Counted from the stretch's first letter, positions 3,581 through 56,085 are shown. The stretch: 64,000 bases of DNA from Candidatus Staskawiczbacteria bacterium (GCA_041661545.1 JBAZUH010000001.1:672148-736147); one strand, 5' to 3'. Translations and numbers: made by a program. Notes: generated by a model from the sequence alone, not told the origin.

Positions 3581-6337
3581 ATGGGAGATGGTAGAATAAA
3601 ATATAAAAAATATATAAAAACTATGAACGGAGCAAATTTTACAAATAAGGCACAGGATGCGTTAATGCAAGCACAGTCTTTGGCTCAAGAAAAGGGACAA
3701 TCGCAAATTGATGCGTTACATTTATTATCTGTTTTATTAACACAAGAGGGTTCTATTATAATTACAATTTTGCAAAAACTTGGAGTTGACCCTGATGTTT
3801 TAATCAAAAAAGTTGATTTACAAATTTTAAAAATTCCACCAATTGCAACGCAACAGGCATTTGGCCAGTTTTATCTTACACAAGATATGGCCAAGGTTTT
3901 AGACAGAGCTAGGCAGGAAGCAATAAAAATGAATGATGAATTTATTTCAATTGAACATTTATTTTTAGCTTTAGTTGATACAAAATCTGGCGCAAAAGAT
4001 GTTTTAGAAAAAGTTAATTTTTTGTCGGGAAGCCCTTCGGGAATAGATGGGGCCGGCTTAAAAAGTTCAAAACTTGATTATGAGGTGGTTATGAAAGTTT
4101 TGTCTCAAATAAGAGGCGGGCAAAGAATTACCGACCCAGAACCAGAATCAAAATATCAAGTAATTGAAAAATATACTAGAAATTTAACAAATTTAGCTGC
4201 TGCAGGCAAAATTGATCCAATAGTCGGAAGAGACAACGAAGTTAGAAGATTAATGCAAATAATTTCTAGAAGAACTAAGAATAATCCAGTTTTAATTGGA
4301 GAAGCTGGCGTTGGTAAAACAGCTATTGTTGAAGGTTTTGCACAAAAAATTGCAAGAGGAAACGTGCCCGATTTTTTAAAAAATAAAGAAATTATTTCTT
4401 TAGATTTGGGGTCTATAATAGCAGGCACAAAATACAGGGGAGAATTTGAAACAAGAATAAAAGCTTTATTAAAAGAGCTTTCCAGGTCTGCAGGAAAATA
4501 TATTTTGTTTATAGATGAGCTCCACACTTTAGTGGGAGCAGGAGCTGCCGAAGGTGCAATTGACGCTTCAAATCTTTTAAAGCCAGCGTTGGCTAGGGGA
4601 GAGTTGCGGGCTATTGGAGCTACAACTTTAAGAGAATATCAAAAATATATTGAAAAAGACCCAGCTTTAGAAAGAAGATTTCAACCTATTTTTGTTCAAG
4701 AGCCAAGCATCGAAGACGCTACTGCAATGTTGCGTGGCATAAAAGAAAAATATGAAGTTCATCATGGAGTAAAAATAAAAGATTCTGCAATTAAGGCAGC
4801 TGTAGATTTGGCTTCAAGATATATTGCCGACAGGTTTTTACCAGATAAAGCAGTAGATTTAATGGATGAAGCAGCTTCAGCTTTAAGATTAGAAATTGAA
4901 TCTGACCCACAAGAGTTAGAAAAATTTGACGAGGCTATTATGAAGTTAGAAATTGAAAAACAAGCTTTAAAAAAAGAAAAAGGAAGCGAAAGAAGGCTTA
5001 AAGTAATTGCCAGAGAATTGGCCAACTTAAATGAAAAAGCAAAATCATTAAGGTTAAAATGGGGAGCTGAAAAAGAATTAATTAATAAAATTAAAGACAT
5101 AAGAGAAAAAGTAGATAATTTATCTTATCAAACAGAAATTGCACAAAGAGAAGCTGATTTAGAAAAAGTTGCAGAAATAAAATATGGGAAAATTCCAGAA
5201 TTATTAAGAGAACTAGCTGCCACAGAACAAAAATTAATTAAAATACAAAAAGAACATAGGTTCTTAAAAGAAGAAGTTACCGAAGAAGAAGTAGCTCGCG
5301 TTGTTTCACGCTGGACGGGCATTCCTGTTACTCGTTTAATAACCGAAGAAGCTAAAAAATTAGAAACAATGGAAGATACTCTAAATAAAAGAGTAATCGG
5401 CCAACAAGAGGCGATTTCAGCCATTTCAAGGGCTATTAGAAGAGCTAGGGCAGGGATTTCAGAAGAAAATAAACCATTGGGCTCTTTCTTGTTTTTAGGA
5501 CCAACAGGAGTTGGAAAAACCGAAACCGCCAGAGCTTTGGCTGAGTTTTTGTTTGATGACGAAAAGGCAATGATAAGGCTAGATATGTCAGAATATATGG
5601 AGCGTCATACAGTTTCAAAAATTATTGGAAGCCCTCCAGGATATGTTGGTTACGAAGAATCTGGTCAATTAACAGAAAAAGTTAGACGAAGGCCATATTC
5701 AGTGCTTTTGTTAGACGAAGTTGAAAAAGCCCACCCAGATGTGTTTAATATTTTATTGCAAATTTTTGAAGATGGCAGGTTAACAGACTCTAAGGGTAGG
5801 TTAGTATCATTTAAAAATACAATTATTATAATGACATCTAATTTGGGAAGTGACTATATTAACAAAATGTCTTCACTTGGGTTTAATAACAAAGAAGAAT
5901 TAGTTCAAAGAGAAAATATGAGAGAAAAAATCTTTGATACTTTGCGCGACTCATTTAGACCAGAATTTTTAAATAGAATTGATGAAATGGTTATATTCAA
6001 TTATTTGAAAAAAGAGCAAATTAAAACAATTGTTGATTTGGAATTGTCTAAAGTAGAAAAACGTTTAGCCACTAAAGAAATAAAAATTAGTATTTCTGAA
6101 AAAGCCAAAGAACTTTTAGTAAAAGAAGGATTTGATCAAAATTTGGGAGCTCGTCCGCTAAAAAGAGTTATTCAGCGCTTAATTTTAGACCCATTATCAG
6201 TTAAAATTGTGGCTAATGAAATTACCGAAGGCAGTAGGGTATTAATTGATCAGCAAGAAGGAAAAATAGTCTTTGATGCCCCTCGGTTATTACCAAGAAT
6301 GCAAAATAATAGAAAATTAGCTAAAATTAAAAAGTAA
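3581..6337 (+). CDS. clpB: ClpB disaggregase (AAA+ chaperone); true start probably ATG at 3623 ([14 protein letters not shown]...)
   Basis: Clp N-domain repeats. Two Walker A sites ([18 protein letters not shown]), a long coiled-coil middle domain and 'GARPLKR' near the C-terminus. Confidence 0.95.
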
Positions 6338-6348
6338 AAAATAAAAAA

Positions 6349-6374
6349 CCCTCGGAATATTCCGAGGGTTTTTT
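6349..6374 (+). terminator. clpB rho-independent terminator
   Basis: ccctcgga-atat-tccgaggg followed by T6. Confidence 0.9.
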
Positions 6375-6403
6375 AGTTCAAAAACCCAGTTATACAACTG
6401 GGC

Positions 6404-6440
6404 AAGAGTTATCCACAGTTTGTTAAGTGGATTTTTGTTT
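6404..6440 (+). repeat. Direct repeat copy 1 (aagagTTATCCACAgtttgttaagtggatttttgttt)
   Basis: About 37 bp, repeated at 6950..6986 with 3 mismatches. Contains a perfect TTATCCACA 9-mer and an ATCCAC/GTGGAT hairpin followed by T5. Confidence 0.9.
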
Positions 6441-6488
6441 ATAAAAAGATGTAAAATAGAATAATAAAAAATTAGTTCTTTAAAATAT

Positions 6489-6555
6489 TTGGTGGCCGAA
6501 GATGAAATTTAAATTTTTTGTATTAATATTCATAAATTTCATCTTCGGCTACCAA
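6489..6555 (+). other. Long hairpin (23-bp stem with one G-T pair, 21-nt AT loop) immediately 5' of the HNH gene RBS
   Basis: ttggtggccgaagatgaaattta ... taaatttcatcttcggctaccaa. Confidence 0.85.
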
Positions 6556-6573
6556 CAATCAAGGGGGTAACAA

Positions 6574-6885
6574 ATGAGGTTCTTTAAATGCAGGTGGAAG
6601 ATATGCAGGAGAAAAAGATGTGCAAGGTGTCGCACTCGATATAGAATAACCCGCCATCACGTCATTCCTAAAGTGCATTGCAAAGGTAGTAACGAAATCA
6701 TTCATCTTTGCCGATACTGCCACAAGTGTATTGAGACGATAATTCTAACAGAAGAGGTAATTGCTGGGGGTTGCGACGTAGGAGAAAGGTTTAGGCTTCC
6801 AGACGAGCGCTATCGTGAAATTGCACGCCTGTTTGTTAAAAGAGAATACCAGCCAGCCAGCGCACCCGAGCTTACCAGCTGTTAA
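6574..6885 (+). CDS. Small HNH-family endonuclease in a GC-rich cassette
   Basis: 'RHHVIPK...GSNEIIHLCRYCHKCIE' fits the HNH His-Asn-His/Cys-box pattern. N-terminus is Arg/Cys-rich. Strong SD AAGGGGG. Confidence 0.6.
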   Translation: MRFFKCRWKICRRKRCARCRTRYRITRHHVIPKVHCKGSNEIIHLCRYCHKCIETIILTEEVIAGGCDVGERFRLPDERYREIARLFVKREYQPASAPELTSC

Positions 6886-6915
6886 TTTGTGTCATTTACT
6901 ACCCACCTTCGTGAT

Positions 6916-6944
6916 GGGCTGTTGCACAACGGCCCCATTTTTTT
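6916..6944 (+). terminator. Rho-independent terminator of the HNH cassette
   Basis: gggctgttg-cac-caacggccc (one G-T pair) followed by aT7. Confidence 0.7.
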
Positions 6945-6949
6945 GAGGT

Positions 6950-6986
6950 AAGAGTTATCCACAGCTTATTAAGTGGATTTTTATTT
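6950..6986 (+). repeat. Direct repeat copy 2 (aagagTTATCCACAgcttattaagtggatttttatttt)
   Basis: See 6404..6440. The two copies bracket the HNH cassette 546 bp apart. Confidence 0.9.
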
Positions 6987-7138
6987 TTTAAAACAACGTA
7001 TTGGTAAGTGTGACTTTAAATTATTGTAAAAATATTTGGATAATGGTTTAATTAAATAAAAAATGTGCTAATTTTCTTATAGTTAGAAAATTGAATATAA
7101 ATTTTAAAATAAAATAAAAATTAAATAAGTATAAAATC

Positions 7139-7993
7139 ATGAAAGAATATAAAGATTTTAACAATAAACTAAAATTGTTGATTAGTAAGCGGAGAGATTT
7201 AATCGTCAATACGTTATCTAATATATTTACAATGAGATTAATCGGCAATAAGACGCATGGTGATTTGGCCGAAATAGGAATGGCTGAATTTGTTCATCAG
7301 TTTATGTATGACTACGATAGTAAACATGTTGGGAAAGACCTTTTTCGCGCAAAGGAGCATGAAGAAGATATTATGATTATTAATGAAGTTACAAAGTTCC
7401 AATTCCCAGTTAGTTTAAAGGCATATGGGGATGGCCCTTTACAGCTTTCGACAGATAGTGACCAAAAAATGTTTCCATATCTTGAAAAGCAAGGTAAAGA
7501 TATTGTAAACAAGAAAAAAATTAGAGAAATTTTTTCTTCACAGGCATTCTCTGATTTTAATAATATAAATGTTATGCCTCTAATTTATAATGAACAAAAG
7601 AAGCAATGTAATATCATGGTTTTTGATCATGATAAAGCAATAAAAAATACAGAACGTATTTTTTATATAGGTAAAGAAGAAAGTTTTGGTAGTAAAAAAT
7701 CAGGTAAATCTAGAAAGCACCCAATTTTTTTGTTTTTAGATAATAAAAATAATTATATTTGCGAAGTTAGGTATGGTGGAGCAGCGGCGAATGCATTGCA
7801 AAGAGGCCTTTGGACAAATACAAAGCATGCCAGCTCTTATTTTGATAGTATCACGGACGGGTGGATTGATTATTCGCACAATTTAACGCTTGTAAGATTA
7901 TTTAGTCTTGCGCTAAATAGTCGGGAAGAATGTCATAAAGAGGTGAATGTAATCTTACAAAGAGATATAAATAAATTGAATGAAAGAAAATAG
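7139..7993 (+). CDS. Putative type II restriction endonuclease (family not recognised)
   Basis: 284-aa ORF overlapping the downstream adenine methyltransferase by 14 nt. Possible PD-(D/E)xK-like 'EEDIMIINE...VSLKAYG'. The call rests mainly on context. Confidence 0.45.
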   Translation: MKEYKDFNNKLKLLISKRRDLIVNTLSNIFTMRLIGNKTHGDLAEIGMAEFVHQFMYDYDSKHVGKDLFRAKEHEEDIMIINEVTKFQFPVSLKAYGDGPLQLSTDSDQKMFPYLEKQGKDIVNKKKIREIFSSQAFSDFNNINVMPLIYNEQKKQCNIMVFDHDKAIKNTERIFYIGKEESFGSKKSGKSRKHPIFLFLDNKNNYICEVRYGGAAANALQRGLWTNTKHASSYFDSITDGWIDYSHNLTLVRLFSLALNSREECHKEVNVILQRDINKLNERK

Positions 7994-9134
7994 CACGATG
8001 CCAATATTGTCTAATAGAAAAGATTTTTCTGACATAAAAACTCAGGGTATAAAATATGCGGGTTCTAAGCTAAAAATAATTCCTTACATCTTAGAAAGTA
8101 TTAAAGATTTAAATATTGTAACGGTCTTAGACGGATTTAGTGGTTCTACTAGAGTAAGTCAGGCGCTGGCACAAAGGGGTTATGATGTAGTCTCTAATGA
8201 CATCGCCTGCTGGTCGGAAGTATGTGCAAAATGTTTTTTATTACACAAAAAAGATAAAGAATACTATCAAAATATAATCGATGGCCTCAACTCTCTTAAG
8301 GGATATAGGGGTTGGTTTACTGAACATTATGGTGGCGATGAATCAATGAAAGTGAAAATGCCATTTCAAATAAAAAATACAAAAAAATTAGACGCGATAA
8401 GGGATAGAATTGATGAATTAAAGTTGAACGACATTGATAAGGCAGTTATTTTAACAAGTTTGATATTCGCATTAGACTCAGTAGACAGCACTCTTGGACA
8501 TTTTGTATCATATCTTTCTAAATGGTCTAGTCGTTCTTATAATGATTTAGTGCTTAAGGTCCCTGAATTAATAAAAACCAATGGTAAGCACACAGTACTT
8601 AGGGAAGATATTTTTGATGTCATAAAAGATAATACTTTTGATTTAGCATATTTCGACCCACCCTATGGGTCAAATAATGAAAAAATGCCACCAAGTAGAG
8701 TTAGATACTCATCATATTATCATATTTGGACATCAGTTATTAAAAATGACAGACCACCGCTCTTTGGAAAAGTGAATAGAAGAGAAGACACGAGAGATTT
8801 GATTTCGGCTTCTTTGTTCGAAGAATTTAGAAAAAATGAGAAAGGAAATTTTATTGCGATGGAAACAATAAAGAAAATGATTCAATGCACTAATGCAAGA
8901 TATATCTTGCTTTCTTATAGTTCAGGTGGGCGAGCAACTAAGCAGGAGCTTGAGGATATTTTTGCAGAAACAGGGAAAGTTCTTAAAATTATTGAAATAG
9001 ATTATAAAAAAAATATTATGGCTACTATGCGTTGGACGAATAAGTGGATAAACTCAGACGGTAAACATAAAGAGTACCTTTTTTTAATGGAAAAAAACAC
9101 CAGAGCAGCGGACAATTTATTAAGAAATAAATAA
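7980..9134 (+). CDS. N6-adenine DNA methyltransferase (D12/Dam-like alpha class)
   Basis: 'KYAGSKLKIIPYI' (like the Dam WAGGK motif), SAM motif 'LDGFSGSTRV', then the catalytic 'FDPPYG'. The motif order (I before IV) indicates alpha class. Confidence 0.85.
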   Translation: MKENSTMPILSNRKDFSDIKTQGIKYAGSKLKIIPYILESIKDLNIVTVLDGFSGSTRVSQALAQRGYDVVSNDIACWSEVCAKCFLLHKKDKEYYQNIIDGLNSLKGYRGWFTEHYGGDESMKVKMPFQIKNTKKLDAIRDRIDELKLNDIDKAVILTSLIFALDSVDSTLGHFVSYLSKWSSRSYNDLVLKVPELIKTNGKHTVLREDIFDVIKDNTFDLAYFDPPYGSNNEKMPPSRVRYSSYYHIWTSVIKNDRPPLFGKVNRREDTRDLISASLFEEFRKNEKGNFIAMETIKKMIQCTNARYILLSYSSGGRATKQELEDIFAETGKVLKIIEIDYKKNIMATMRWTNKWINSDGKHKEYLFLMEKNTRAADNLLRNK

Positions 9135-9213
9135 TATATAAAAAATATGATCTTTAAAATTTACTTTTATAGGGCGATATAAAACAAAAGCCCCCATATT
9201 TATAAATAAAAAA

Positions 9214-10167
9214 TTGAAAACAATGGACATTATAGACAAGTTAATAAATAAATTAGTTGGAAGGCATGGCCTTTTTCTTTTGGTTATATTCGCTTCGATT
9301 TCGATGTTACTTGTATCTTGGATAGAATTTTTAGTAAAATTTTATCTTGGTTCATATATCCCAAATATTCAAGACGTTTTACGAGGTGCTTTATTATTAG
9401 TTTTTTGGCTTTTTTTAATTAAAATATGCCAGTGGCTATGGGAAAAAACTATTTTCTTTTTTAAACTAATTAAAAGGTTTATATTAGGAAACAGAATTAT
9501 CTCTGTGCCCGAGGTATCAGAATGGATTTTTCAGGGAAGTTTGAATGTGATAGGTGACTCTTTGGAATTAACCACTTCTAATTCAGGATGTTTAATTAAG
9601 AATTTCTTATATAAAAATTTCTCATTAAATTGCGTTATGAAGATTCCCAATGGGGGTAGGGGGTCGTTAATTTTTCGAGCAAAAGATTTAGAAAATTATC
9701 TAATGATTCAGTTCGAATTAGCTGATACTTCGGACAATGGTACAATAGTCTACGATATAGTGCCCCATATACGCTATATGGGGCACTTCGAAACTTTTAA
9801 AATATATCAACCAGTTTACCCAAATGAAAGACACTTTCCAACACTCGTAAAATACGATAAGATAGGCGGTCTACCAGTGAACCTGAAGGTCCAAAATAGT
9901 GTTGTAAAATTAACAATAGGTATTGAGCGAAAAGAGTTTTATTGGAATATACCGACTCATACAGAGCAAAATATACTCAGCAATATGATCTCGGGGCAAC
10001 AAGAAGCACAACAAAATAAAATAGAATCGCTTACGGGTAGGATAGATCCGCTAGACGGCATACTTGTTCCAAGAATTTGGTTTAGAGGTGGTTACGGGCG
10101 AATTGGTTTTCGCGCATGGGGTTTAGAAAAAATTATTATAAGTGATTTAAAAATAGAACCTATATAA
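9214..10167 (+). CDS. Membrane-anchored protein with a LamG/DUF1080-like (concanavalin-fold) C-terminal domain; likely start ATG 9223
   Basis: Two or three N-terminal TM helices. The C-terminal 'GSLIFRAKD..YLMIQF' and 'GRIGFRAWGLEKIIISDLKIEPI' resemble DUF1080 strand patterns. Weak call. Confidence 0.35.
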   Translation: MKTMDIIDKLINKLVGRHGLFLLVIFASISMLLVSWIEFLVKFYLGSYIPNIQDVLRGALLLVFWLFLIKICQWLWEKTIFFFKLIKRFILGNRIISVPEVSEWIFQGSLNVIGDSLELTTSNSGCLIKNFLYKNFSLNCVMKIPNGGRGSLIFRAKDLENYLMIQFELADTSDNGTIVYDIVPHIRYMGHFETFKIYQPVYPNERHFPTLVKYDKIGGLPVNLKVQNSVVKLTIGIERKEFYWNIPTHTEQNILSNMISGQQEAQQNKIESLTGRIDPLDGILVPRIWFRGGYGRIGFRAWGLEKIIISDLKIEPI

Positions 10168-10177
10168 AGTTAAAGAT

Positions 10178-10360
10178 TTGTATAATTCTAGTGGCGTAAC
10201 AAATCCTCAAGTAAAAACATGGGATGGTAAAAATGAGTTGGGCGAAGTTGTGCCTAATGGAGTTTATACAATAAAAATTGAATTTGAAGATACGGCGGGG
10301 AATTCGGTTATTGATACAAGTAAAACAATTACTGTGGAGATTGTTGAGGCAATAGAATAG
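10178..10360 (+). pseudogene. Orphan C-terminal fragment of a FlgD-Ig-like surface-protein domain
   Basis: 'TWDGKNELGEVVPNGVYTIKIEFEDTAGN' is the classic FlgD-Ig/T9SS-like beta-sandwich motif. Only 60 codons, a TTG pseudo-start and no N-terminal part. Confidence 0.5.
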
Positions 10361-10363
10361 TTG

Positions 10364-10404
10364 ACCCTTCACCATTTGGGTTATATCACGAAATGGTGAA
10401 GGGT
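10364..10404 (+). other. 14-bp perfect inverted repeat (acccttcaccattt / aaatggtgaagggt) abutting the -35 of the next promoter
   Basis: Read directly from the sequence. Both arms are flanked by TTGAC. Confidence 0.85.
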
Positions 10405-10431
10405 TGACTAAACTAAAATTAGTGATAACTT
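10404..10431 (+). promoter_or_regulatory. Promoter of miniprotein module A (TTGACT-16 nt-TG-n-TAACTT)
   Basis: Extended -10. The whole promoter and 5' UTR are about 70 percent identical to 11416..11496. Confidence 0.55.
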
Positions 10432-10484
10432 TATAAATATGAGTAAGCAGTTGGCCCTTTCACAAGTTTAATGGAGAGAAAACC

Positions 10485-10721
10485 ATGAGAACACTGATTA
10501 TGAACAAGAAACCACTTTCCTGGAGAGGAATTTGCTATTTTAGCTTTGGACTTTTGTTTATGTCTATTGCGATTGTAATTATCAGCATACTACCAACAAC
10601 ACTCAACCCTCCTATTTGGGAAAATGGGTCGTTTATTGTGGGAGGAGTAGGTTTAGTGCTATCTTTCATCTTATGGATAATATCGGAGAACAAGTTTGAA
10701 AAACAACAATTTCCGAAATAA
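10485..10721 (+). CDS. 78-aa two-TM miniprotein (paralogue of 11497..11793)
   Basis: SD GGAGAG. Two hydrophobic helices joined by 'NPPIWENGSFIVGG' (compare 'HPPLWKDAYFIAGN' in the paralogue). Confidence 0.6.
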   Translation: MRTLIMNKKPLSWRGICYFSFGLLFMSIAIVIISILPTTLNPPIWENGSFIVGGVGLVLSFILWIISENKFEKQQFPK

Positions 10722-10743
10722 AAATTTTCTTCTCTTTGCCATG

Positions 10744-10774
10744 CCCAGAGCGCACGCTTATGGGTTCTTTTTTT
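10744..10774 (+). terminator. Probable terminator of module A (ends gggttcTTTTTTT)
   Basis: Imperfect ccca..tggg stem plus a T-run. The tail 'gggttcttttttt' recurs at 12268..12280. Confidence 0.45.
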
Positions 10775-10784
10775 ACATAGGTAT

Positions 10785-10838
10785 CCCCAAAAATAGTCGC
10801 GTTTTTGACGGCCGTCAAAAACGCGACTATTTTTGGGG
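10785..10838. repeat. 54-bp perfect palindrome P1 (CCCCAAAAATAGTCGCGTTTTTGACGG | CCGTCAAAAACGCGACTATTTTTGGGG)
   Basis: Both 27-nt arms are exact reverse complements. Related imperfect copies lie at 12351..12399 and 55001..55048. Confidence 0.95.
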
Positions 10839-10851
10839 AACATAAACTAAT

Positions 10852-10877
10852 AAAAAAAGAGTCGAGGGTTGCTCGAC
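10852..10877 (-). terminator. Terminator for the minus-strand gene 10911..11303
   Basis: gtcgag-ggttg-ctcgac, with an A-run on + (a T-run on the minus strand). Confidence 0.55.
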
Positions 10878-10910
10878 AAAAAAGAAGAAAGAATTATGGC
10901 CTAATCAATT

Positions 10911-11303
10911 TTAGAGCGCTACGGTGTTTCCACACTCAGAGCACCAAAATCGGCCGTGGTCGTCGCGAGGCGACATTAGTTTTCCACAACAATATGGCAC
11001 TGCACCCGCCTCTACAATTGAGTCGGTGCGGTCCCAATAATCCCCATTAAGAAGCCCGAGGCTAGCCGGGAAACCTGGAGAAATTTCATCTAAAGTCTTC
11101 TGCACGTCATCTATCGAAGATGATTTGGACGGCGGAGGCTCTCTCTGTAAGCCTTGCGTGCCCGTGTCATTTAACAGTCCCTTGAGATATGCAGTTATAG
11201 CTTCTTCTATGCCCTCGCTAATGGAGGAAGACGACGCTTGTCCTAAAAATCCCGACAATCCAGTTGTGGCAATTGGCCACGCTGATTTTTTTTGGTCTGG
11301 CAT
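10911..11303 (-). CDS. Hypothetical 130-aa protein with C-terminal zinc ribbon (GC-rich islet)
   Basis: 'YCCGKLMSPRDDHGRFWCSECG' is a CxxC-like pair. The N-terminal half is low-complexity and Ser/Gly-rich. G+C is far above background. Confidence 0.45.
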   Translation of the reverse strand: MPDQKKSAWPIATTGLSGFLGQASSSSISEGIEEAITAYLKGLLNDTGTQGLQREPPPSKSSSIDDVQKTLDEISPGFPASLGLLNGDYWDRTDSIVEAGAVPYCCGKLMSPRDDHGRFWCSECGNTVAL

Positions 11304-11415
11304 TTTGGCAATTTCTTTCTATTTAATTTCAGGTTGACAACGAACAACTAAATGATTATTTTAGAGTAACAAATTCAAAAAAGATTAACAAGGGATATAA
11401 TAAAGCTAATTTAGT

Positions 11416-11443
11416 TTGACAAAATCAAAATTAATGATAAATT
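11416..11443 (+). promoter_or_regulatory. Promoter of miniprotein module B (TTGACA-16 nt-TG-n-TAAATT)
   Basis: Homologous to 10404..10431. Confidence 0.55.
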
Positions 11444-11496
11444 AATAACTACGAGCTAATGAACAGCTCTTTTACAACTTTAACAAGGAGAACGCC

Positions 11497-11793
11497 ATGA
11501 ATGAACCGAATGAATTTGACGCAATTGACCGCGATTACAAAGAAGCTTTAAATAAGCTTCGGCGCACTAGAAGATCCTTCACTATTATTTGCACTGTGTT
11601 TGGAATTGGGATGGTGATAAGTGCGCTCGGAATGATTCTTTTCTTTTTTGGGATAGTGAAAGGAGTCATTCATCCGCCACTTTGGAAAGATGCCTATTTT
11701 ATAGCAGGCAACGTTTTGTTTGTGATAGGCATTTTTATACTTGTCTTTATTATCTTTAAGACTGACCGCTTTTGTAGGAGGATAAAATTATGA
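11497..11793 (+). CDS. 98-aa two-TM miniprotein (paralogue of 10485..10721)
   Basis: SD AAGGAG. Same TM-loop-TM layout as the paralogue. The stop overlaps the next start (ATGA). Confidence 0.6.
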   Translation: MNEPNEFDAIDRDYKEALNKLRRTRRSFTIICTVFGIGMVISALGMILFFFGIVKGVIHPPLWKDAYFIAGNVLFVIGIFILVFIIFKTDRFCRRIKL

Positions 11794-12257
11794 ACATACA
11801 AGGATATTCTTTATGTGAGTTGCTTGGGCACATTGAAGATGGTTTGCGCGCAATTAACCCCAAACAATCGTGCGGATACGCTACCATAATGGTAATCAAT
11901 GACAGCGGCTTCGTTGTCTACAAAACATGTCGTTCAGTGGGGCTTAACACATTGCGTGATGAGGGCAATCACTATAATCGCTCTATAAAACAGGCTGATC
12001 GGCTATTTGCTCATCCCAAGCATGTAAGTAGCTATCAAAGCCGAAACCCGCGGCAGAATCAAGGGGCTGGCGCCATACGGGCTGGCTCGGTTATACTTTC
12101 ATTCAGCGGTTTGACGTCAGAGTTTTGCAACGAGGCTTTGGTGCTGTGGGTGGCCCACGTTGTGCGCTGGTTAAGCGTTGATGAGGCGTTTAATATTGCC
12201 AGATTGAGTGGCAACCCTTTAGTTGACGACAATTTTTTTGCTCTTGCCCGGCGATAG
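11790..12257 (+). CDS. Hypothetical 155-aa protein, GC-rich; faint GlcG/DUF336-like pattern
   Basis: Translationally coupled to the miniprotein. 'GAGAIRAGSVILSFSGLTSEF' loosely recalls the GlcG 'GG.PI..G.VIGAIGVSG' motif. The family call is speculative. Confidence 0.5.
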   Translation: MNIQGYSLCELLGHIEDGLRAINPKQSCGYATIMVINDSGFVVYKTCRSVGLNTLRDEGNHYNRSIKQADRLFAHPKHVSSYQSRNPRQNQGAGAIRAGSVILSFSGLTSEFCNEALVLWVAHVVRWLSVDEAFNIARLSGNPLVDDNFFALARR

Positions 12258-12280
12258 AAATATCGAAGGGTTCTTTTTTT
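12247..12280 (+). terminator. Terminator of module B
   Basis: ccc/ggg and cgata-gaaa-tatcg nested stem, then ttcT7. Confidence 0.55.
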
Positions 12281-12332
12281 AGATAAACATACTGTTAAAT
12301 AAAGTTTTTCCACAGGAAAAATTTTACCATTT

Positions 12333-12440
12333 AGCAGTATAAACGAAAATCCCCAAAAATAGCGTTTTTTGACACAAAAAATGCTACCATTTTTGAGGGA
12401 TAAATAAAAATAGCAGTATAAACGAAAATCCCCTTGGGGT
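12333..12440. repeat. 22-bp direct repeats (agcagtataaacgaaaatcccc at 12333 and 12413) flanking imperfect palindrome P2 (12351..12399); the second copy ends in ccccttgggg
   Basis: Read directly from the sequence. The P2 arms share CCCCAAAAATAG..TTTTTGAC with P1 and AAATGGTA.CATTTTTTG with P3. Confidence 0.85.
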
Positions 12441-12469
12441 GATTCTCTGATAGTGATATAATATAAAAT

Positions 12470-16138: not shown

Positions 16139-18031
16139 ATGAGTATTAAAAAAACAATTATCGCAACAGTCTTAGGCTTGGCCTTGGTTGCAGCAGTTGT
16201 TCCAGCACCAGCTCAAGGTGTAACAATTGACGAGTTATTAGCTCAAATTACAGCTTTAACAGCTCAATTGAATGCATTGCAAGGTGGTTCAACAGCAGGA
16301 ACCGGCGCATGCGTCGGAGTCACATTCAGCAGATTTTTGACCATTGGGTCAACAGGATCCGATGTAAGATGCTTACAACAAATCGTAGGCAACACAATCA
16401 CAGGAACATTTGGTTCATACACAAAAGCCAAAGTTGTAACATGGCAATCCACACACGGAATCACAAATTGTGGTAGCGTTTGTGGAACAGTAGGTTCATT
16501 AACAAGAGCAGCATTAAACAATGCTCTTTCAGTAGGTGGATCAGTAATACCTCCAGTAACACCGGTTGTAACAACACCAGGAGCTGAAGGTTCAATCGCA
16601 GTAACAAAATCAGCAAGCCCAGCTTCAGGAGCTGAATTAAATGTTGGAACAAGCGGAGCAGTTATTGCTCTTGATGTAAAAGCAACAGGTTCAGATGTAG
16701 TTATGAATCGTTTGGACTTGAACTTTGACACCGCCACATCAGGCACAAACTGCAATATCAGGCCTTGGACATATGTCCAAAGCGTAACAGTTTCAGATGG
16801 CACAACATCAAAAGAAATGGCTGTAACATCTGCCAACACACTTGAAAACACAGTTGGTTCAGATTACACAGTAAGAATTGAAGGATTAAACATGGTTGTC
16901 GCAAAAGACGTAACAAAGAAGTTTACAGCAACATTTACAGCTGTATCTGCTTTGCCAGCCGGAGCAACATCATGCGTGAACACAGTTGAAGTTGACGCAA
17001 ACGGCGTCCGTGCAACTGATGGCGCAGGTGTAAGCCAATACAACGCAAGCGCAATAACAGGAAATAGCTTCACAGTGAAGACTGGTGACACAGGAACTCT
17101 TACAGTTTCTGCTCACACAGACAATCCAAAAGCAAAGAACGTTATTGTTTCTGAAACAGCATCAACAGAAAATGTTCTTTTGTTGAAATTTAATGTTGAG
17201 GCAAAAGTTAATGATGTTATTGTAAGAAAAATTTACGTTCAACCTTACAGCTCAAGCACAACTTTGGCAACAACTATGCCAACATTAAAATTGCTTGATG
17301 GAACCACAGAGGTGGCTTCAACAAGCACAGCTGCAAGCGCTACTTTTGATGTAACAGGAATTACAATTCCAAAAGGAACAACAAAGACATTCTCTGTAGT
17401 TGGAACAGTTGCCAAAACAAATGCTAGCGCAGTAAGTGAAGGAGACGCTGTTTACGCAAACATGGCCGCAGCCGATGTAACTGGAGAAGATGCTTCAACA
17501 TTTGCAGCAGTAACAGCTGGTGGATCAACTTTGACAGGAGCATTGCAATATGCATATTTGAAAGCTCCAACATTCGCATATGTTAGCTCTTCAATTTCAC
17601 CAATTGCTTCTAGCTTGCTTGCCAGCAGCACGCCACAACAACTTAGTACTGAACTTAAGTTCAATGTAACAGCCGTGGGTGGAGATATCTATATAAGAAA
17701 ATATGATTCCACAGCAGCTTCTAGCGGACTTGTTTCTACATCAACTAGTGGAAACGTCGCAGCCTCTTCCACCATTGCTTATACATTTGATAGCAATGCT
17801 ACATCGCAAACATATGCTTATAAGATTTCCAATGGTGAAACAAAGACATTCACAGTCAATTCCAACTCAACAACTATGAACCATGCCGCAGACATGTGGG
17901 AAGGAACTGGAATTCTTAATATCAAATGGGGAACAACAGATGGCAATACAGATGAAGATGGTAGCACAGTTCAGACATGGGGTCTTGAAGACCTTAAGAC
18001 AAGTCAACTACTCTTGAAAGCAAGAGATTAG
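16139..18031 (+). CDS. Secreted Thr/Ala/Ser-rich cell-surface protein with N-terminal coiled segment and PG-binding-like domain
   Basis: Signal peptide 'IIATVLGLALVAAVVPAPAQG'. 'LLAQITALTAQLNALQG', then 'C..TFSRFLTIGSTGSDVRCLQQ' (PG_binding_1-like). The remainder is a long beta-rich low-complexity region. Confidence 0.65.
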   Translation: MSIKKTIIATVLGLALVAAVVPAPAQGVTIDELLAQITALTAQLNALQGGSTAGTGACVGVTFSRFLTIGSTGSDVRCLQQIVGNTITGTFGSYTKAKVVTWQSTHGITNCGSVCGTVGSLTRAALNNALSVGGSVIPPVTPVVTTPGAEGSIAVTKSASPASGAELNVGTSGAVIALDVKATGSDVVMNRLDLNFDTATSGTNCNIRPWTYVQSVTVSDGTTSKEMAVTSANTLENTVGSDYTVRIEGLNMVVAKDVTKKFTATFTAVSALPAGATSCVNTVEVDANGVRATDGAGVSQYNASAITGNSFTVKTGDTGTLTVSAHTDNPKAKNVIVSETASTENVLLLKFNVEAKVNDVIVRKIYVQPYSSSTTLATTMPTLKLLDGTTEVASTSTAASATFDVTGITIPKGTTKTFSVVGTVAKTNASAVSEGDAVYANMAAADVTGEDASTFAAVTAGGSTLTGALQYAYLKAPTFAYVSSSISPIASSLLASSTPQQLSTELKFNVTAVGGDIYIRKYDSTAASSGLVSTSTSGNVAASSTIAYTFDSNATSQTYAYKISNGETKTFTVNSNSTTMNHAADMWEGTGILNIKWGTTDGNTDEDGSTVQTWGLEDLKTSQLLLKARD

Positions 18032-55058: not shown

Positions 55059-55090
55059 AAAAAAAAGCAGTTGATGGTTAGTCAGACTGC
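55059..55090 (-). terminator. Terminator of the minus-strand DHOD-like operon
   Basis: gcagt/actgc stem with an A8 run on + (T8 on the minus strand). Abuts the stop codon. Confidence 0.5.
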
Positions 55091-56085
55091 TAGCTGAAGA
55101 GCCGTTGGGCTTTTCTGATTATCGCTTGCACTCGTCGAGGACGAAGTGTGCCAACACACCCCAGGGACACAGAATCTGCACCTGCGAGGAAGAGAGAGAC
55201 TATTTCGTCAGATGACATAATCCCTCCGCCAGCACATATATGAGTATCAATGTTAGCGAGTTTGGCCTTATTAAGCCATTCTATCACCAGCGGGAGCAAT
55301 GGTTTCCCGGAAAGAGCTCCGCCCCCAAATTCATGCAAGGGCGAAATATCTGTCCCAAAAAGCTCTTGGCGATCTATTCCTACACGAGGTAAATCATCCC
55401 AATGAATCGTGTTAGACAAACATATTGCGCCTAGATGATGGTTGCATCTTCTGCATATCTCCCGGACATCTTTCACCGGAGTCAACACGTTAAATTTCCA
55501 CATCAGTGGAATGCGTAGGCGATGAGCCAACATAACTCCGCGACAGACTTCATCAATATTGGCTAGGTCATCGGGATTTAGTCCAGCGTTTGGGCAAGAA
55601 CAATTCACCTGTAGACCTACGGGCGCCTTAAAAGAGTCCAGGTGATTGCCCAATAGTTGCAGAAATCGTTCTAACTCATTTAACCGTTTGTCGGGCGTAT
55701 TTTCGACCGACATAAATGAGAGGAAAAATGGTTCGGTGCGTTGTTGCCAGATGCCTTTCTCCAGCAGTGCTTCAGCGCCGATGTTTGAAAGGTCAACTGC
55801 ATTGAGCATAATGCCCAATCTGAACATTCTAAGCGATAACTTCCTGTATCCGGAATGGTAGTTTGGCAGGATGCATCGAGGCGAAAGTTCTTTTGGCGTT
55901 ACGCCATCTTCTTTTAAGGGCATGTTCCCTGCGTGAGGAGGCCCCGTTGTAGTTTTTGCTACAAAGGTAGAACCTGTCCAATTGGGCCTAAAAGGCCATA
56001 TTTGATGTTTGAAGTACCCTCCGAAGACTCCTCGAGCACCCGAAGCGCAAAAAGTTGGATTAAAATCTATGCCTTGTATTTTCAT
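55090..56085 (-). CDS. Dihydroorotate-dehydrogenase-family (class 1 DHOD/DHPD-like) FMN TIM-barrel oxidoreductase, GC-rich
   Basis: 'FNPTFCASG', 'FVAKTTTGPPHAGN', 'VNCSCPNAG', 'LSNTI', 'GGGALSGKPL' and 'CAGGGIMSSDEIVSLFLAGADSV' match the DHOD-family signature positions. Confidence 0.7.
   Translation of the reverse strand: MKIQGIDFNPTFCASGARGVFGGYFKHQIWPFRPNWTGSTFVAKTTTGPPHAGNMPLKEDGVTPKELSPRCILPNYHSGYRKLSLRMFRLGIMLNAVDLSNIGAEALLEKGIWQQRTEPFFLSFMSVENTPDKRLNELERFLQLLGNHLDSFKAPVGLQVNCSCPNAGLNPDDLANIDEVCRGVMLAHRLRIPLMWKFNVLTPVKDVREICRRCNHHLGAICLSNTIHWDDLPRVGIDRQELFGTDISPLHEFGGGALSGKPLLPLVIEWLNKAKLANIDTHICAGGGIMSSDEIVSLFLAGADSVSLGCVGTLRPRRVQAIIRKAQRLFS

Follow-up and report, generated by a model that had tools for sequence, protein, structure and literature searches.

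A duplicated promoter, leader and membrane-miniprotein unit in a variable region of a Candidatus Staskawiczbacteria genome

Background

Type I toxin-antitoxin systems typically consist of small hydrophobic open reading frames (ORFs) that occur in several copies with conserved 5' regions in accessory DNA, and their toxins are typically under about 60 aa in length with one transmembrane (TM) segment. Integron cassettes are promoterless ORFs that carry an attC site and need IntI, and class II holins and pinholins (Holin-X, PF07332) are small proteins in which a short periplasmic loop joins two TM helices and the cytoplasmic ends are basic. Here we describe a locus that recalls all three of these systems in a stretch of 64,000 nucleotides (referred to throughout as the window, with positions counted from its first nucleotide), which is part of a 737,971-bp contig in a metagenome-assembled genome of Candidatus Staskawiczbacteria, a member of the Candidate Phyla Radiation (CPR, Patescibacteria). 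The locus contains two units, A and B, which each combine a promoter, a leader, a Shine-Dalgarno (SD) sequence, a gene for a two-TM miniprotein and an intrinsic terminator. Unit B carries in addition the gene for a 155-aa protein, and an inverted gene for a 130-aa protein lies between the units (NCBI locus tags WC711_03695 to WC711_03705).

Our analysis tentatively favours a foreign and lineage-specific insert (10361-12469) with two anciently duplicated and co-regulated membrane-miniprotein units, in one of which the 98-aa miniprotein would be the partner of the 155-aa protein. Confidence in the anatomy and origin of the units is high and confidence in their function is low. The units represent a clean small example of acquired genes that retain their own expression grammar (consensus promoter, leader, SD and terminator) in a CPR genome.

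Results

Two copies of one promoter and leader

The regions upstream of the two miniprotein genes (10404-10484 and 11416-11496) align without gaps and are identical at 55 of 81 positions (68%), in good agreement with the 70% estimated in a first-pass annotation made from the sequence alone. The next best match among all other 81-nt windows on both strands (approximately 128,000) is 45/81, and a degenerate 33-nt pattern drawn from both copies finds only these two sites in the window and was recovered in 0 of 100 shuffles. A search for a third copy of the promoter pattern in the window and in 688 kb of related loci found none. Both copies have the elements that had been read in them, with a TTGAC(T/A) -35, a 16-nt spacer, an extended -10, conserved blocks in the untranslated leader and an SD sequence, and the -10 of copy A (TAACTT, a 3/6 match) scores under the threshold of the promoter scanner. 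With the -35, TGnTAAnTT, SD and ATG masked, 36 of the 56 remaining positions are still identical where 30% would be expected (binomial P ~1e-7), and the similarity therefore exceeds a mere promoter consensus rather than being limited to generic elements.

The leaders are without significant structure (z=0.37 for unit A and -0.8 for unit B, with a consensus fold of -1.95 kcal/mol). A riboswitch or other structured RNA was considered for the leader and rejected, as its folding was no better than that of shuffles and an Rfam scan of the whole window gave no matches. There are also no tRNAs in the window. Conserved 5' regions in front of repeated small hydrophobic ORFs in accessory DNA would be compatible with a type I toxin-antitoxin-like locus, in which the hydrophobic proteins would be silenced by antisense RNAs and the leader would serve as the site of RNA-RNA pairing, and a minus-strand promoter-like site is present within the 78-aa ORF of unit A (10566-10537). 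This site is however not conserved in unit B, the leader is short as well as unstructured and without an Rfam match, and proteins of 78 and 98 aa with two TM segments each do not resemble the toxins of such systems, so that we regard this explanation as highly improbable.

At their 3' ends both units have an intrinsic terminator with the same tail, as the first-pass annotation had also noted, and the shared 14-mer GGGTTCTTTTTTTA occurs in the window only at 10762 and 12268. Each terminator consists of a hairpin followed by UUCUUUUUUU (Table 1). Palindrome P1 lies downstream of unit A and the imperfect palindrome P2 downstream of unit B; they have in common ATCCCCAAAAATAG..CG.TTTTTGAC, and as P2 resembles P1 each unit also has a related 3' hairpin.

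A pair of divergent two-TM miniproteins

The miniproteins of unit A (78 aa) and unit B (98 aa) each have two hydrophobic 19-mer segments and K/R-rich termini, from which an N-in/C-in topology would be predicted under the positive-inside rule. They had been proposed to be two-TM proteins with a common loop, which is borne out by an identity of 28% between them (BLASTP E=6e-6) and by the (N/H)PP(I/L)W loop present in both. Their Smith-Waterman score of 70 is the top score for both proteins, and 65 other small two-TM ORFs from approximately 750 kb of CPR sequence gave a mean of 29 (sd 7) and a maximum of 61. Across the aligned codons 47% of positions 1+2 are identical and 32% of positions 3, the latter being close to the random level for the composition, and this is a pattern as would arise from protein-level constraint after long divergence. 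NCBI annotates miniprotein A as a 73-aa protein starting at Met6, although the SD precedes Met1, and the 98-aa ORF, which is missing from the NCBI annotation, is called by JGI and Logan.

One alternative is that the miniprotein ORFs are not genes. The conserved 81 nt and the ORF-sized stretch behind them would then serve the 155-aa gene as a small RNA or an extended regulatory leader, of which unit A would be a decayed duplicate. The absence of the 98-aa ORF from the NCBI annotation would agree with this, as would flanks that are far better conserved than the "coding" cores and the finding that relatives of the 155-aa gene elsewhere come directly after a promoter and leader. Against it, both ORFs stay free of stops over 78 and 98 codons although the genome is AT-rich, the SD and ATG are conserved in register, codon positions 1+2 are more identical than position 3, the two-TM hydropathy and PP(I/L)W loop are kept and the 98-aa ORF ends in an exact ATGA overlap with a second SD inside its end. 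These retained features, together with leaders that fold no better than shuffles and have no Rfam match, are the reason that both ORFs are treated as real genes here, and we consider the non-coding alternative quite unlikely.

No homologues of the miniproteins were found, in searches that were insensitive. Word-index searches with miniprotein B and with a profile of both miniproteins returned only the query sequences, and that with miniprotein B missed even its own paralogue, which makes these searches a weak test of whether the miniproteins are "orphans". Pfam gave only sub-threshold matches to miniprotein A. A hidden Markov model (HMM) of the miniproteins matched none of the ORFs in 98 loci, the best hit (E=0.04) being to an unrelated TM protein upstream of rlmN in locus L027, and a scan of IMG/VR with the miniprotein profile and tblastn and blastn searches of INPHARED and PLSDB recovered no relatives. 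A 91-aa TM protein in locus L003 gave E=0.001 in a single comparison, which did not survive correction, and its gene does not adjoin the relative of the 155-aa gene in that locus. Small TM genes are also present directly upstream of rlmN in L021 (670-924, 84 aa) and L027 (50-346, 98 aa); they are unrelated genes, and neither product is significantly similar to the miniproteins (E>=0.08). Taken alone, without function or relatives, the two miniproteins hold modest interest.

The 155-aa protein belongs to a large family

The second gene of unit B had been described as an ATGA-coupled, GC-rich ORF of unknown function carried as cargo. Its coupling and composition stand, with the ATGA overlap at 11790-11793, an AGGAGG 8 nt upstream of the start and a GC content of 0.48, but it is not an orphan. 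A word-index search with the protein returned only itself, and an exhaustive HMMER search (phmmer) gave 467 relatives with an E of 1e-3 or lower, mostly of 150-170 aa and mostly from CPR genomes; 23 of these reach 1e-10 or better. The best non-self relative has an E of 1.5e-15 over residues 1-145 and the family HMM finds the window copy at E=2e-43. Alignments to the family are full length at 30-42% identity and show the motifs SxEKAxRL, HxSSWQSR(D/N), GGAIR and SFSGLPExxDEA. Columns that are invariant or nearly so (G29, E67, R71, L72, S81, G94, A95, S104, F105, G107, E115 and N142) are all present in the window copy, which differs from the family in a one-residue insertion and in having LTSEFCNEA in place of LPELADEA.

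The four proteins of the locus were compared with the Pfam, NCBIfam, PADLOC-DB and PHROGs profile libraries, in which no match rose above threshold, and the 155-aa protein had no Pfam, NCBIfam, PADLOC or PHROG match at all; none of 73 family members matched Pfam or NCBIfam. AlphaFold2 with the family alignment gave a confident model (predicted local distance difference test, pLDDT, 91.4; predicted template modelling score, pTM, 0.88) of a soluble protein with the order alpha-beta-beta-alpha-alpha-beta-beta-alpha-alpha-alpha. Foldseek searches with it against PDB and BFVD returned nothing significant, the best matches being to LuxR-type and GAF ligand-binding domains (E=0.03, TM-score 0.35-0.36), and PDB sequence searches gave nothing useful. 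The motifs (GG..I / ..SG....DE..A-type) and the order of secondary structure resemble those of GlcG/DUF336 proteins (PF03928), which have a profilin-like alpha/beta fold. This lead was not confirmed, as 0 of the 73 members match PF03928 even at E<=1 and no GlcG-like structure is among the top 50 PDB matches.

Among GTDB species representatives the family is present in 17 loci (L002-L018), 11 of which are from named CPR lineages, and a Staskawiczbacteria-like relative (L026) has a family gene (5177-5665) 3.5 kb from rlmN. The gene lies at about 4001-4500 in most of L002-L018. One of these loci, L017, is labelled as uncultured Gammaproteobacteria and has several genes in synteny with the Kerfeldbacteria locus L018, which makes its label or binning doubtful, and the family may thus be even more CPR-restricted than the titles suggest. 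In nearly every locus the family gene stands alone: it is preceded by a TTGAC promoter and a leader, in most cases with a strong SD, and is closed by an intrinsic terminator. In the window, by contrast, it is the second cistron after the 98-aa ORF. No leader motif common to the family promoters was found beyond TTGAC and the SD. The surroundings differ from locus to locus, for instance between secY and adk or beside hrcA-grpE-dnaK. In 10 of 15 loci the family gene exceeds the host genes in GC content at third codon positions (GC3) by 0.09 or more, and in none does it fall clearly below them. The difference is large in AT-rich hosts, where the gene has a GC3 of, for instance, 0.48 (L003) or 0.59 (L011) and the host genes one of 0.24 and 0.35, respectively. 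This excess and the lack of a conserved neighbour suggest that the gene is often transferred or that its codons are under unusual selection. The family is absent from the phage and plasmid collections IMG/VR, INPHARED and PLSDB.

A large family mostly from CPR genomes, without a Pfam or NCBIfam match and with a confidently predicted fold that has no PDB match, is in our opinion the most promising lead for experiments to come from this locus.

Foreign composition and the gap between clpB and rlmN

The window has a GC content of 32.5% and nearly all of its genes are on the + strand. GC3 is 0.49 for the 155-aa gene, 0.46 for the 130-aa gene and 0.38 and 0.37 for the miniprotein genes. The median of the window is 0.23, and no native gene exceeds 0.31. 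A DnaK-sized ORF of 630 aa (16139-18031), which was matched by no search, lies in a stretch of higher GC (approximately 0.40) and has a GC3 below 0.26, so that GC at the level of the gene does not alone account for the excess. The signals for translation are also distinct, as had been remarked at the outset: a GGAG-type SD is present in 0 of 50 native + strand genes of the window, and three of the four study genes have strong SDs (GGAG, AAGGAG and AGGAGG) after a leader of approximately 40 nt. A TATAAT-like box situated 5-12 nt ahead of the ATG is frequent in host genes and suggests that their mRNAs are leaderless or have very short leaders.

The closest relative found in a metagenome scan for RlmN (80 loci) is L019, in which ClpB is 91%, RlmN 66%, a DeoR-like protein 63% and an extracytoplasmic function (ECF) sigma factor 70% identical. 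L019 retains the flanking order of clpB followed by rlmN, the DeoR-like gene and the sigma factor gene, and its clpB-rlmN gap holds a single unrelated 686-aa protein with HHH and lamin-tail domains, the gene for which ends 9 nt before rlmN. In the window this gap is 6.1 kb (6338-12469), and genes from it had no BLAST match in any fetched locus. The unrelated gene in the gap of the relative, the four GC3 outliers and the SDs that host genes lack support the accessory region first proposed. Exact-protein look-ups for other contigs with the study genes found nothing except a Logan contig of approximately 1.6 kb (L001; 1,565 bp), an independent assembly that is 100% identical to window 10810-12374.

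Upstream of the units the gap contains a 103-aa ORF, a type II restriction-modification (R-M) pair, a 317-aa protein without a known family and a 60-aa remnant of a FlgD-Ig-like C-terminus. The R-M pair is identified by PADLOC (REase_II E=4.4e-110, MTase_II E=1.5e-136) and by Pfam (MethyltransfD12 E=5e-21). The gap is a variable hotspot that is partly defence-related. Elsewhere in the window, a rare minus-strand gene at 55090-56085 has a GC3 of 0.44 and a dihydroorotate-dehydrogenase-like Pfam match (E=3.7e-9) and is probably another acquired gene.

The R-M pair had been cited in support of a link to defence, and its position is confirmed, the link itself being one of guilt by association only. 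In the corresponding explanation the units would form a toxin-immunity, abortive infection or holin-like pair in a defence island, in which a two-TM miniprotein permeabilises the membrane and the 155- or 130-aa protein senses infection or neutralises the miniprotein. A variable island of foreign composition with an R-M pair and an HNH-like ORF, the tight ATGA coupling typical of two-gene toxin-antidote operons, and the resemblance of the miniproteins to class II holins in size, two TM segments and charged C-terminus all speak for it. However, the match of miniprotein B to Holin-X (E=0.0012) reaches 19.3 bits against a cut-off of 28.4, which is 9 bits short, and miniprotein A has no match. PADLOC gave no match for either miniprotein or the 155-aa protein and PHROGs gave two or three non-significant ones (E 0.014-0.053). 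The neighbours include no endolysin, lysozyme or amidase domain and no phage genes, and the miniprotein and 155-aa families are both absent from IMG/VR, INPHARED and PLSDB. A 155-aa family that is normally a lone gene in housekeeping surroundings is a poor fit to a dedicated antidote, and unit A would be an unguarded toxin. The toxin, holin and abortive infection link put forward initially is not supported and we judge it unlikely.

The 130-aa gene and the divergent control region

The 130-aa gene is transcribed divergently from unit B and has no SD. It is separated from the ORF of unit B by an AT-rich stretch of 193 nt that includes extra promoter-like sites, and this arrangement makes its product a candidate regulator of both units, purely by inference. 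The inverted gene between the units had been described, together with P1, as GC-rich and as encoding a zinc-ribbon protein; the perfect palindrome and the GC content of 0.50 stand, and Pfam and PDB sequence searches gave only weak matches to zinc ribbons. Its AlphaFold2 model is too poor to use (pLDDT 51), the protein forms a singleton cluster, tblastn against phages and plasmids gave no match and PADLOC returned a spurious ZorA match alone (E=0.014).

Hairpins and repeats around the units

P1 is the longest palindrome in the window, with an RNA fold of -44.4 kcal/mol (z=-10), and the fold of P2 is -22.4 kcal/mol (z=-8). A perfect 23-nt direct repeat at 12332 and 12411 (family D8) brackets P2. 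A further hairpin follows the 60-aa remnant ORF, with GAAGGGTT at the end of its right arm, which extends into the -35 of unit A, and 13 of 16 positions are alike between 10390-10405 and 12257-12272 (repeat family D18). No further copy of P1 or of the 23-mer was found in the window or the related loci. The region before rlmN (12297-12469) also contains an "empty" mini-palindrome ATCCCCTTGGGG, the right half of which would be the -35 of a near-leaderless rlmN promoter with a TATAAT that ends 8 nt before the ATG. The Logan contig starts within 2 nt of the centre of P1 and ends within 2 nt of the centre of P2. A break at the perfect 58-nt P1 is the expected product of a k=31 assembly graph. For the imperfect P2 there is no such obvious expectation, and the break there could represent either a loss of coverage at the hairpin or a real structural variant.

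The terminal hairpins raise the question as to whether the units are mobile gene cassettes that were moved or duplicated by recombination at P1 and P2, much as occurs at integron attC sites or with hairpin-dependent elements of the IS200/IS605 type. Related long hairpins 3' of both units, the 23-nt repeat around P2, the GAAAT..GAAGGGTT repeat (D18) that directly precedes unit A and recurs where unit B ends, and the ends of the Logan contig with unit B at the palindrome centres would speak for such an origin. On the other hand the clpB-rlmN gap has no integrase, transposase or TnpA/TnpB-like ORF, the units differ from integron cassettes in bringing promoters of their own, and neither the window nor the 688 kb yielded another copy of P1, the 23-mer or the promoter. 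A k=31 assembler would be expected to break a contig at a perfect 58-nt palindrome such as P1, and at 13/16 the D18 repeat does not stand out from the many chance pairs listed with it. We find this origin very improbable. The modular, cassette-like character attributed to the region rests on two copies, with no third in the window, the related loci, IMG/VR, INPHARED or PLSDB, and was not upheld.

Table 1 Features of the two units and of the clpB-rlmN gap
Feature	Position	Strand	Details
103-aa GC-rich Cys/His-rich ORF	6574-6885		HNH-like by eye, no Pfam match; SD-like AGGGGG; GC3 0.43
Type II R-M pair	7139-9134
Hairpin 3' of 60-aa Ig-like remnant ORF (10178-10360)	10353..10415	+	I4; 25-nt arms, 84% complementary
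Unit A promoter and leader	10404..10484	+	TTGACT, 16-nt spacer, TGaTAACTT, ~40-nt leader, SD GGAG
Miniprotein A, 78 aa, two-TM hairpin (WC711_03695)	10485..10721	+	ORF; GC3 0.37
Unit A intrinsic terminator	10743..10775	+	hairpin then UUCUUUUUUU; -10.7 kcal/mol, z=-1.8
Palindrome P1, perfect 29+29 nt	10783..10840	.	between convergent terminators of unit A and the 130-aa gene
Terminator-like hairpin and T-run, downstream of 130-aa gene	10861..10877	-
130-aa GC-rich ORF (WC711_03700), C-terminal CC...CxxC zinc-ribbon-like motif	10911..11303	-	GC 0.50; GC3 0.46
AT-rich divergent control region	11304..11415	.	GC 0.26; + strand promoter-like sites at 11334 and 11374
Unit B promoter and leader	11416..11496	+	TTGACA, 16-nt spacer, TGaTAAATT, ~40-nt leader, SD AAGGAG
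Miniprotein B, 98 aa, charged N-terminal segment then two-TM hairpin	11497..11793	+	ORF; GC3 0.38
155-aa soluble alpha/beta protein (WC711_03705)	11790..12257	+	ATGA-coupled; SD AGGAGG; GC 0.48; GC3 0.49
Unit B intrinsic terminator	12246..12281	+	hairpin across stop codon, then UUCUUUUUUU; -13.4 kcal/mol, z=-1.6
Repeat-rich spacer before rlmN	12297..12440	.	two related hairpin units ~60 nt apart, P2, direct repeat (families D2, D4, D8, D19)
P2, imperfect palindrome, degenerate cousin of P1	12349..12401	.	downstream of unit B

Discussion

Under the explanation that we tentatively prefer, each unit would be transcribed from a sigma-70-type promoter with an extended -10 into an unstructured leader with a strong SD, followed by the two-TM gene, the intrinsic terminator and the related downstream hairpin. 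One trans-acting factor may control both units and the 130-aa zinc-ribbon-like protein is a candidate for it. In unit B, ribosomes that finish the 98-aa ORF would restart at the ATGA, and the 155-aa protein would thus be made together with miniprotein B, which may be its membrane partner in the form of a tether or gate. Elsewhere the gene of the 155-aa protein would work by itself and be strongly expressed. Unit A would be a paralogue that lacks a partner.

Co-regulation is suggested by the flanks. The non-coding parts of the two units (the 81 nt of promoter and leader, the terminator tail and the hairpin arm) are better conserved than the coding cores, and as synonymous sites are saturated yet the promoter and leader have retained their 68% identity, the flanks appear to be under selection. 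Selection for a shared regulator is the simplest reading and the most likely one. A regulatory region that outlasts the coding region after a duplication points to a shared regulator, and such a regulator can be searched for.

Several observations weigh against this explanation. Gene conversion instead of selection could have kept the flanks alike. There are two copies only of the unit and no orthologue was found in any other genome, with the result that purifying selection on the miniproteins is not directly measurable, and the NCBI pipeline left the 98-aa ORF uncalled. The 18 other family loci have no adjacent small TM protein and no conserved neighbour of any kind, and the pairing with miniprotein B is therefore not recurrent; a form fused to a TM segment (Rosetta-stone) is likewise absent among the longer family members. 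As no family locus has a small two-TM gene fused or adjacent, the coupling is peculiar to this locus and does not characterise the family. The homologue and neighbourhood searches that had been recommended have delivered the 155-aa family, without a recurrent neighbour. The part of a regulator is assigned to the 130-aa protein by inference alone and its model is poor.

A bolder interpretation would see in the units a previously undescribed kind of self-contained mobile expression cassette that brings SD signals into an SD-less host and spreads or duplicates via its hairpins. The miniprotein and its SSWQSR-family partner would then form a new two-component system, linked to the membrane, for defence or toxin-antidote action, with the GC-rich and always strongly promoted family gene as the mobile core. 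We consider this decidedly improbable.

Comparison with known systems

The tentatively preferred pair of co-regulated units has its closest parallels in the systems named at the outset. The miniproteins are alike to class II holins and pinholins in the small size, the two helices, the short loop and the basic ends, and they differ from them in a Holin-X score below the cut-off and in the lack of an endolysin, a spanin, a phage neighbourhood and a PHROG or viral-contig match. Integron cassettes with their attC sites have in common with the units the tandem ORFs that are each followed by a palindrome and the foreign composition. The units differ in having their own promoter and terminator, in a gap without IntI and in being only two in number, and the R''/R' core motifs of attC were not seen in P1 and P2 on reading of their sequences. 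With regard to type I toxin-antitoxin loci (hok/sok, tisB/istR, bsrG/SR4), the units are set apart by larger two-TM proteins and by their short, unstructured leaders, no conserved antisense promoter or terminator was seen in them, and what they share with these loci is a set of repeated small hydrophobic ORFs with conserved 5' regulatory DNA in acquired regions.

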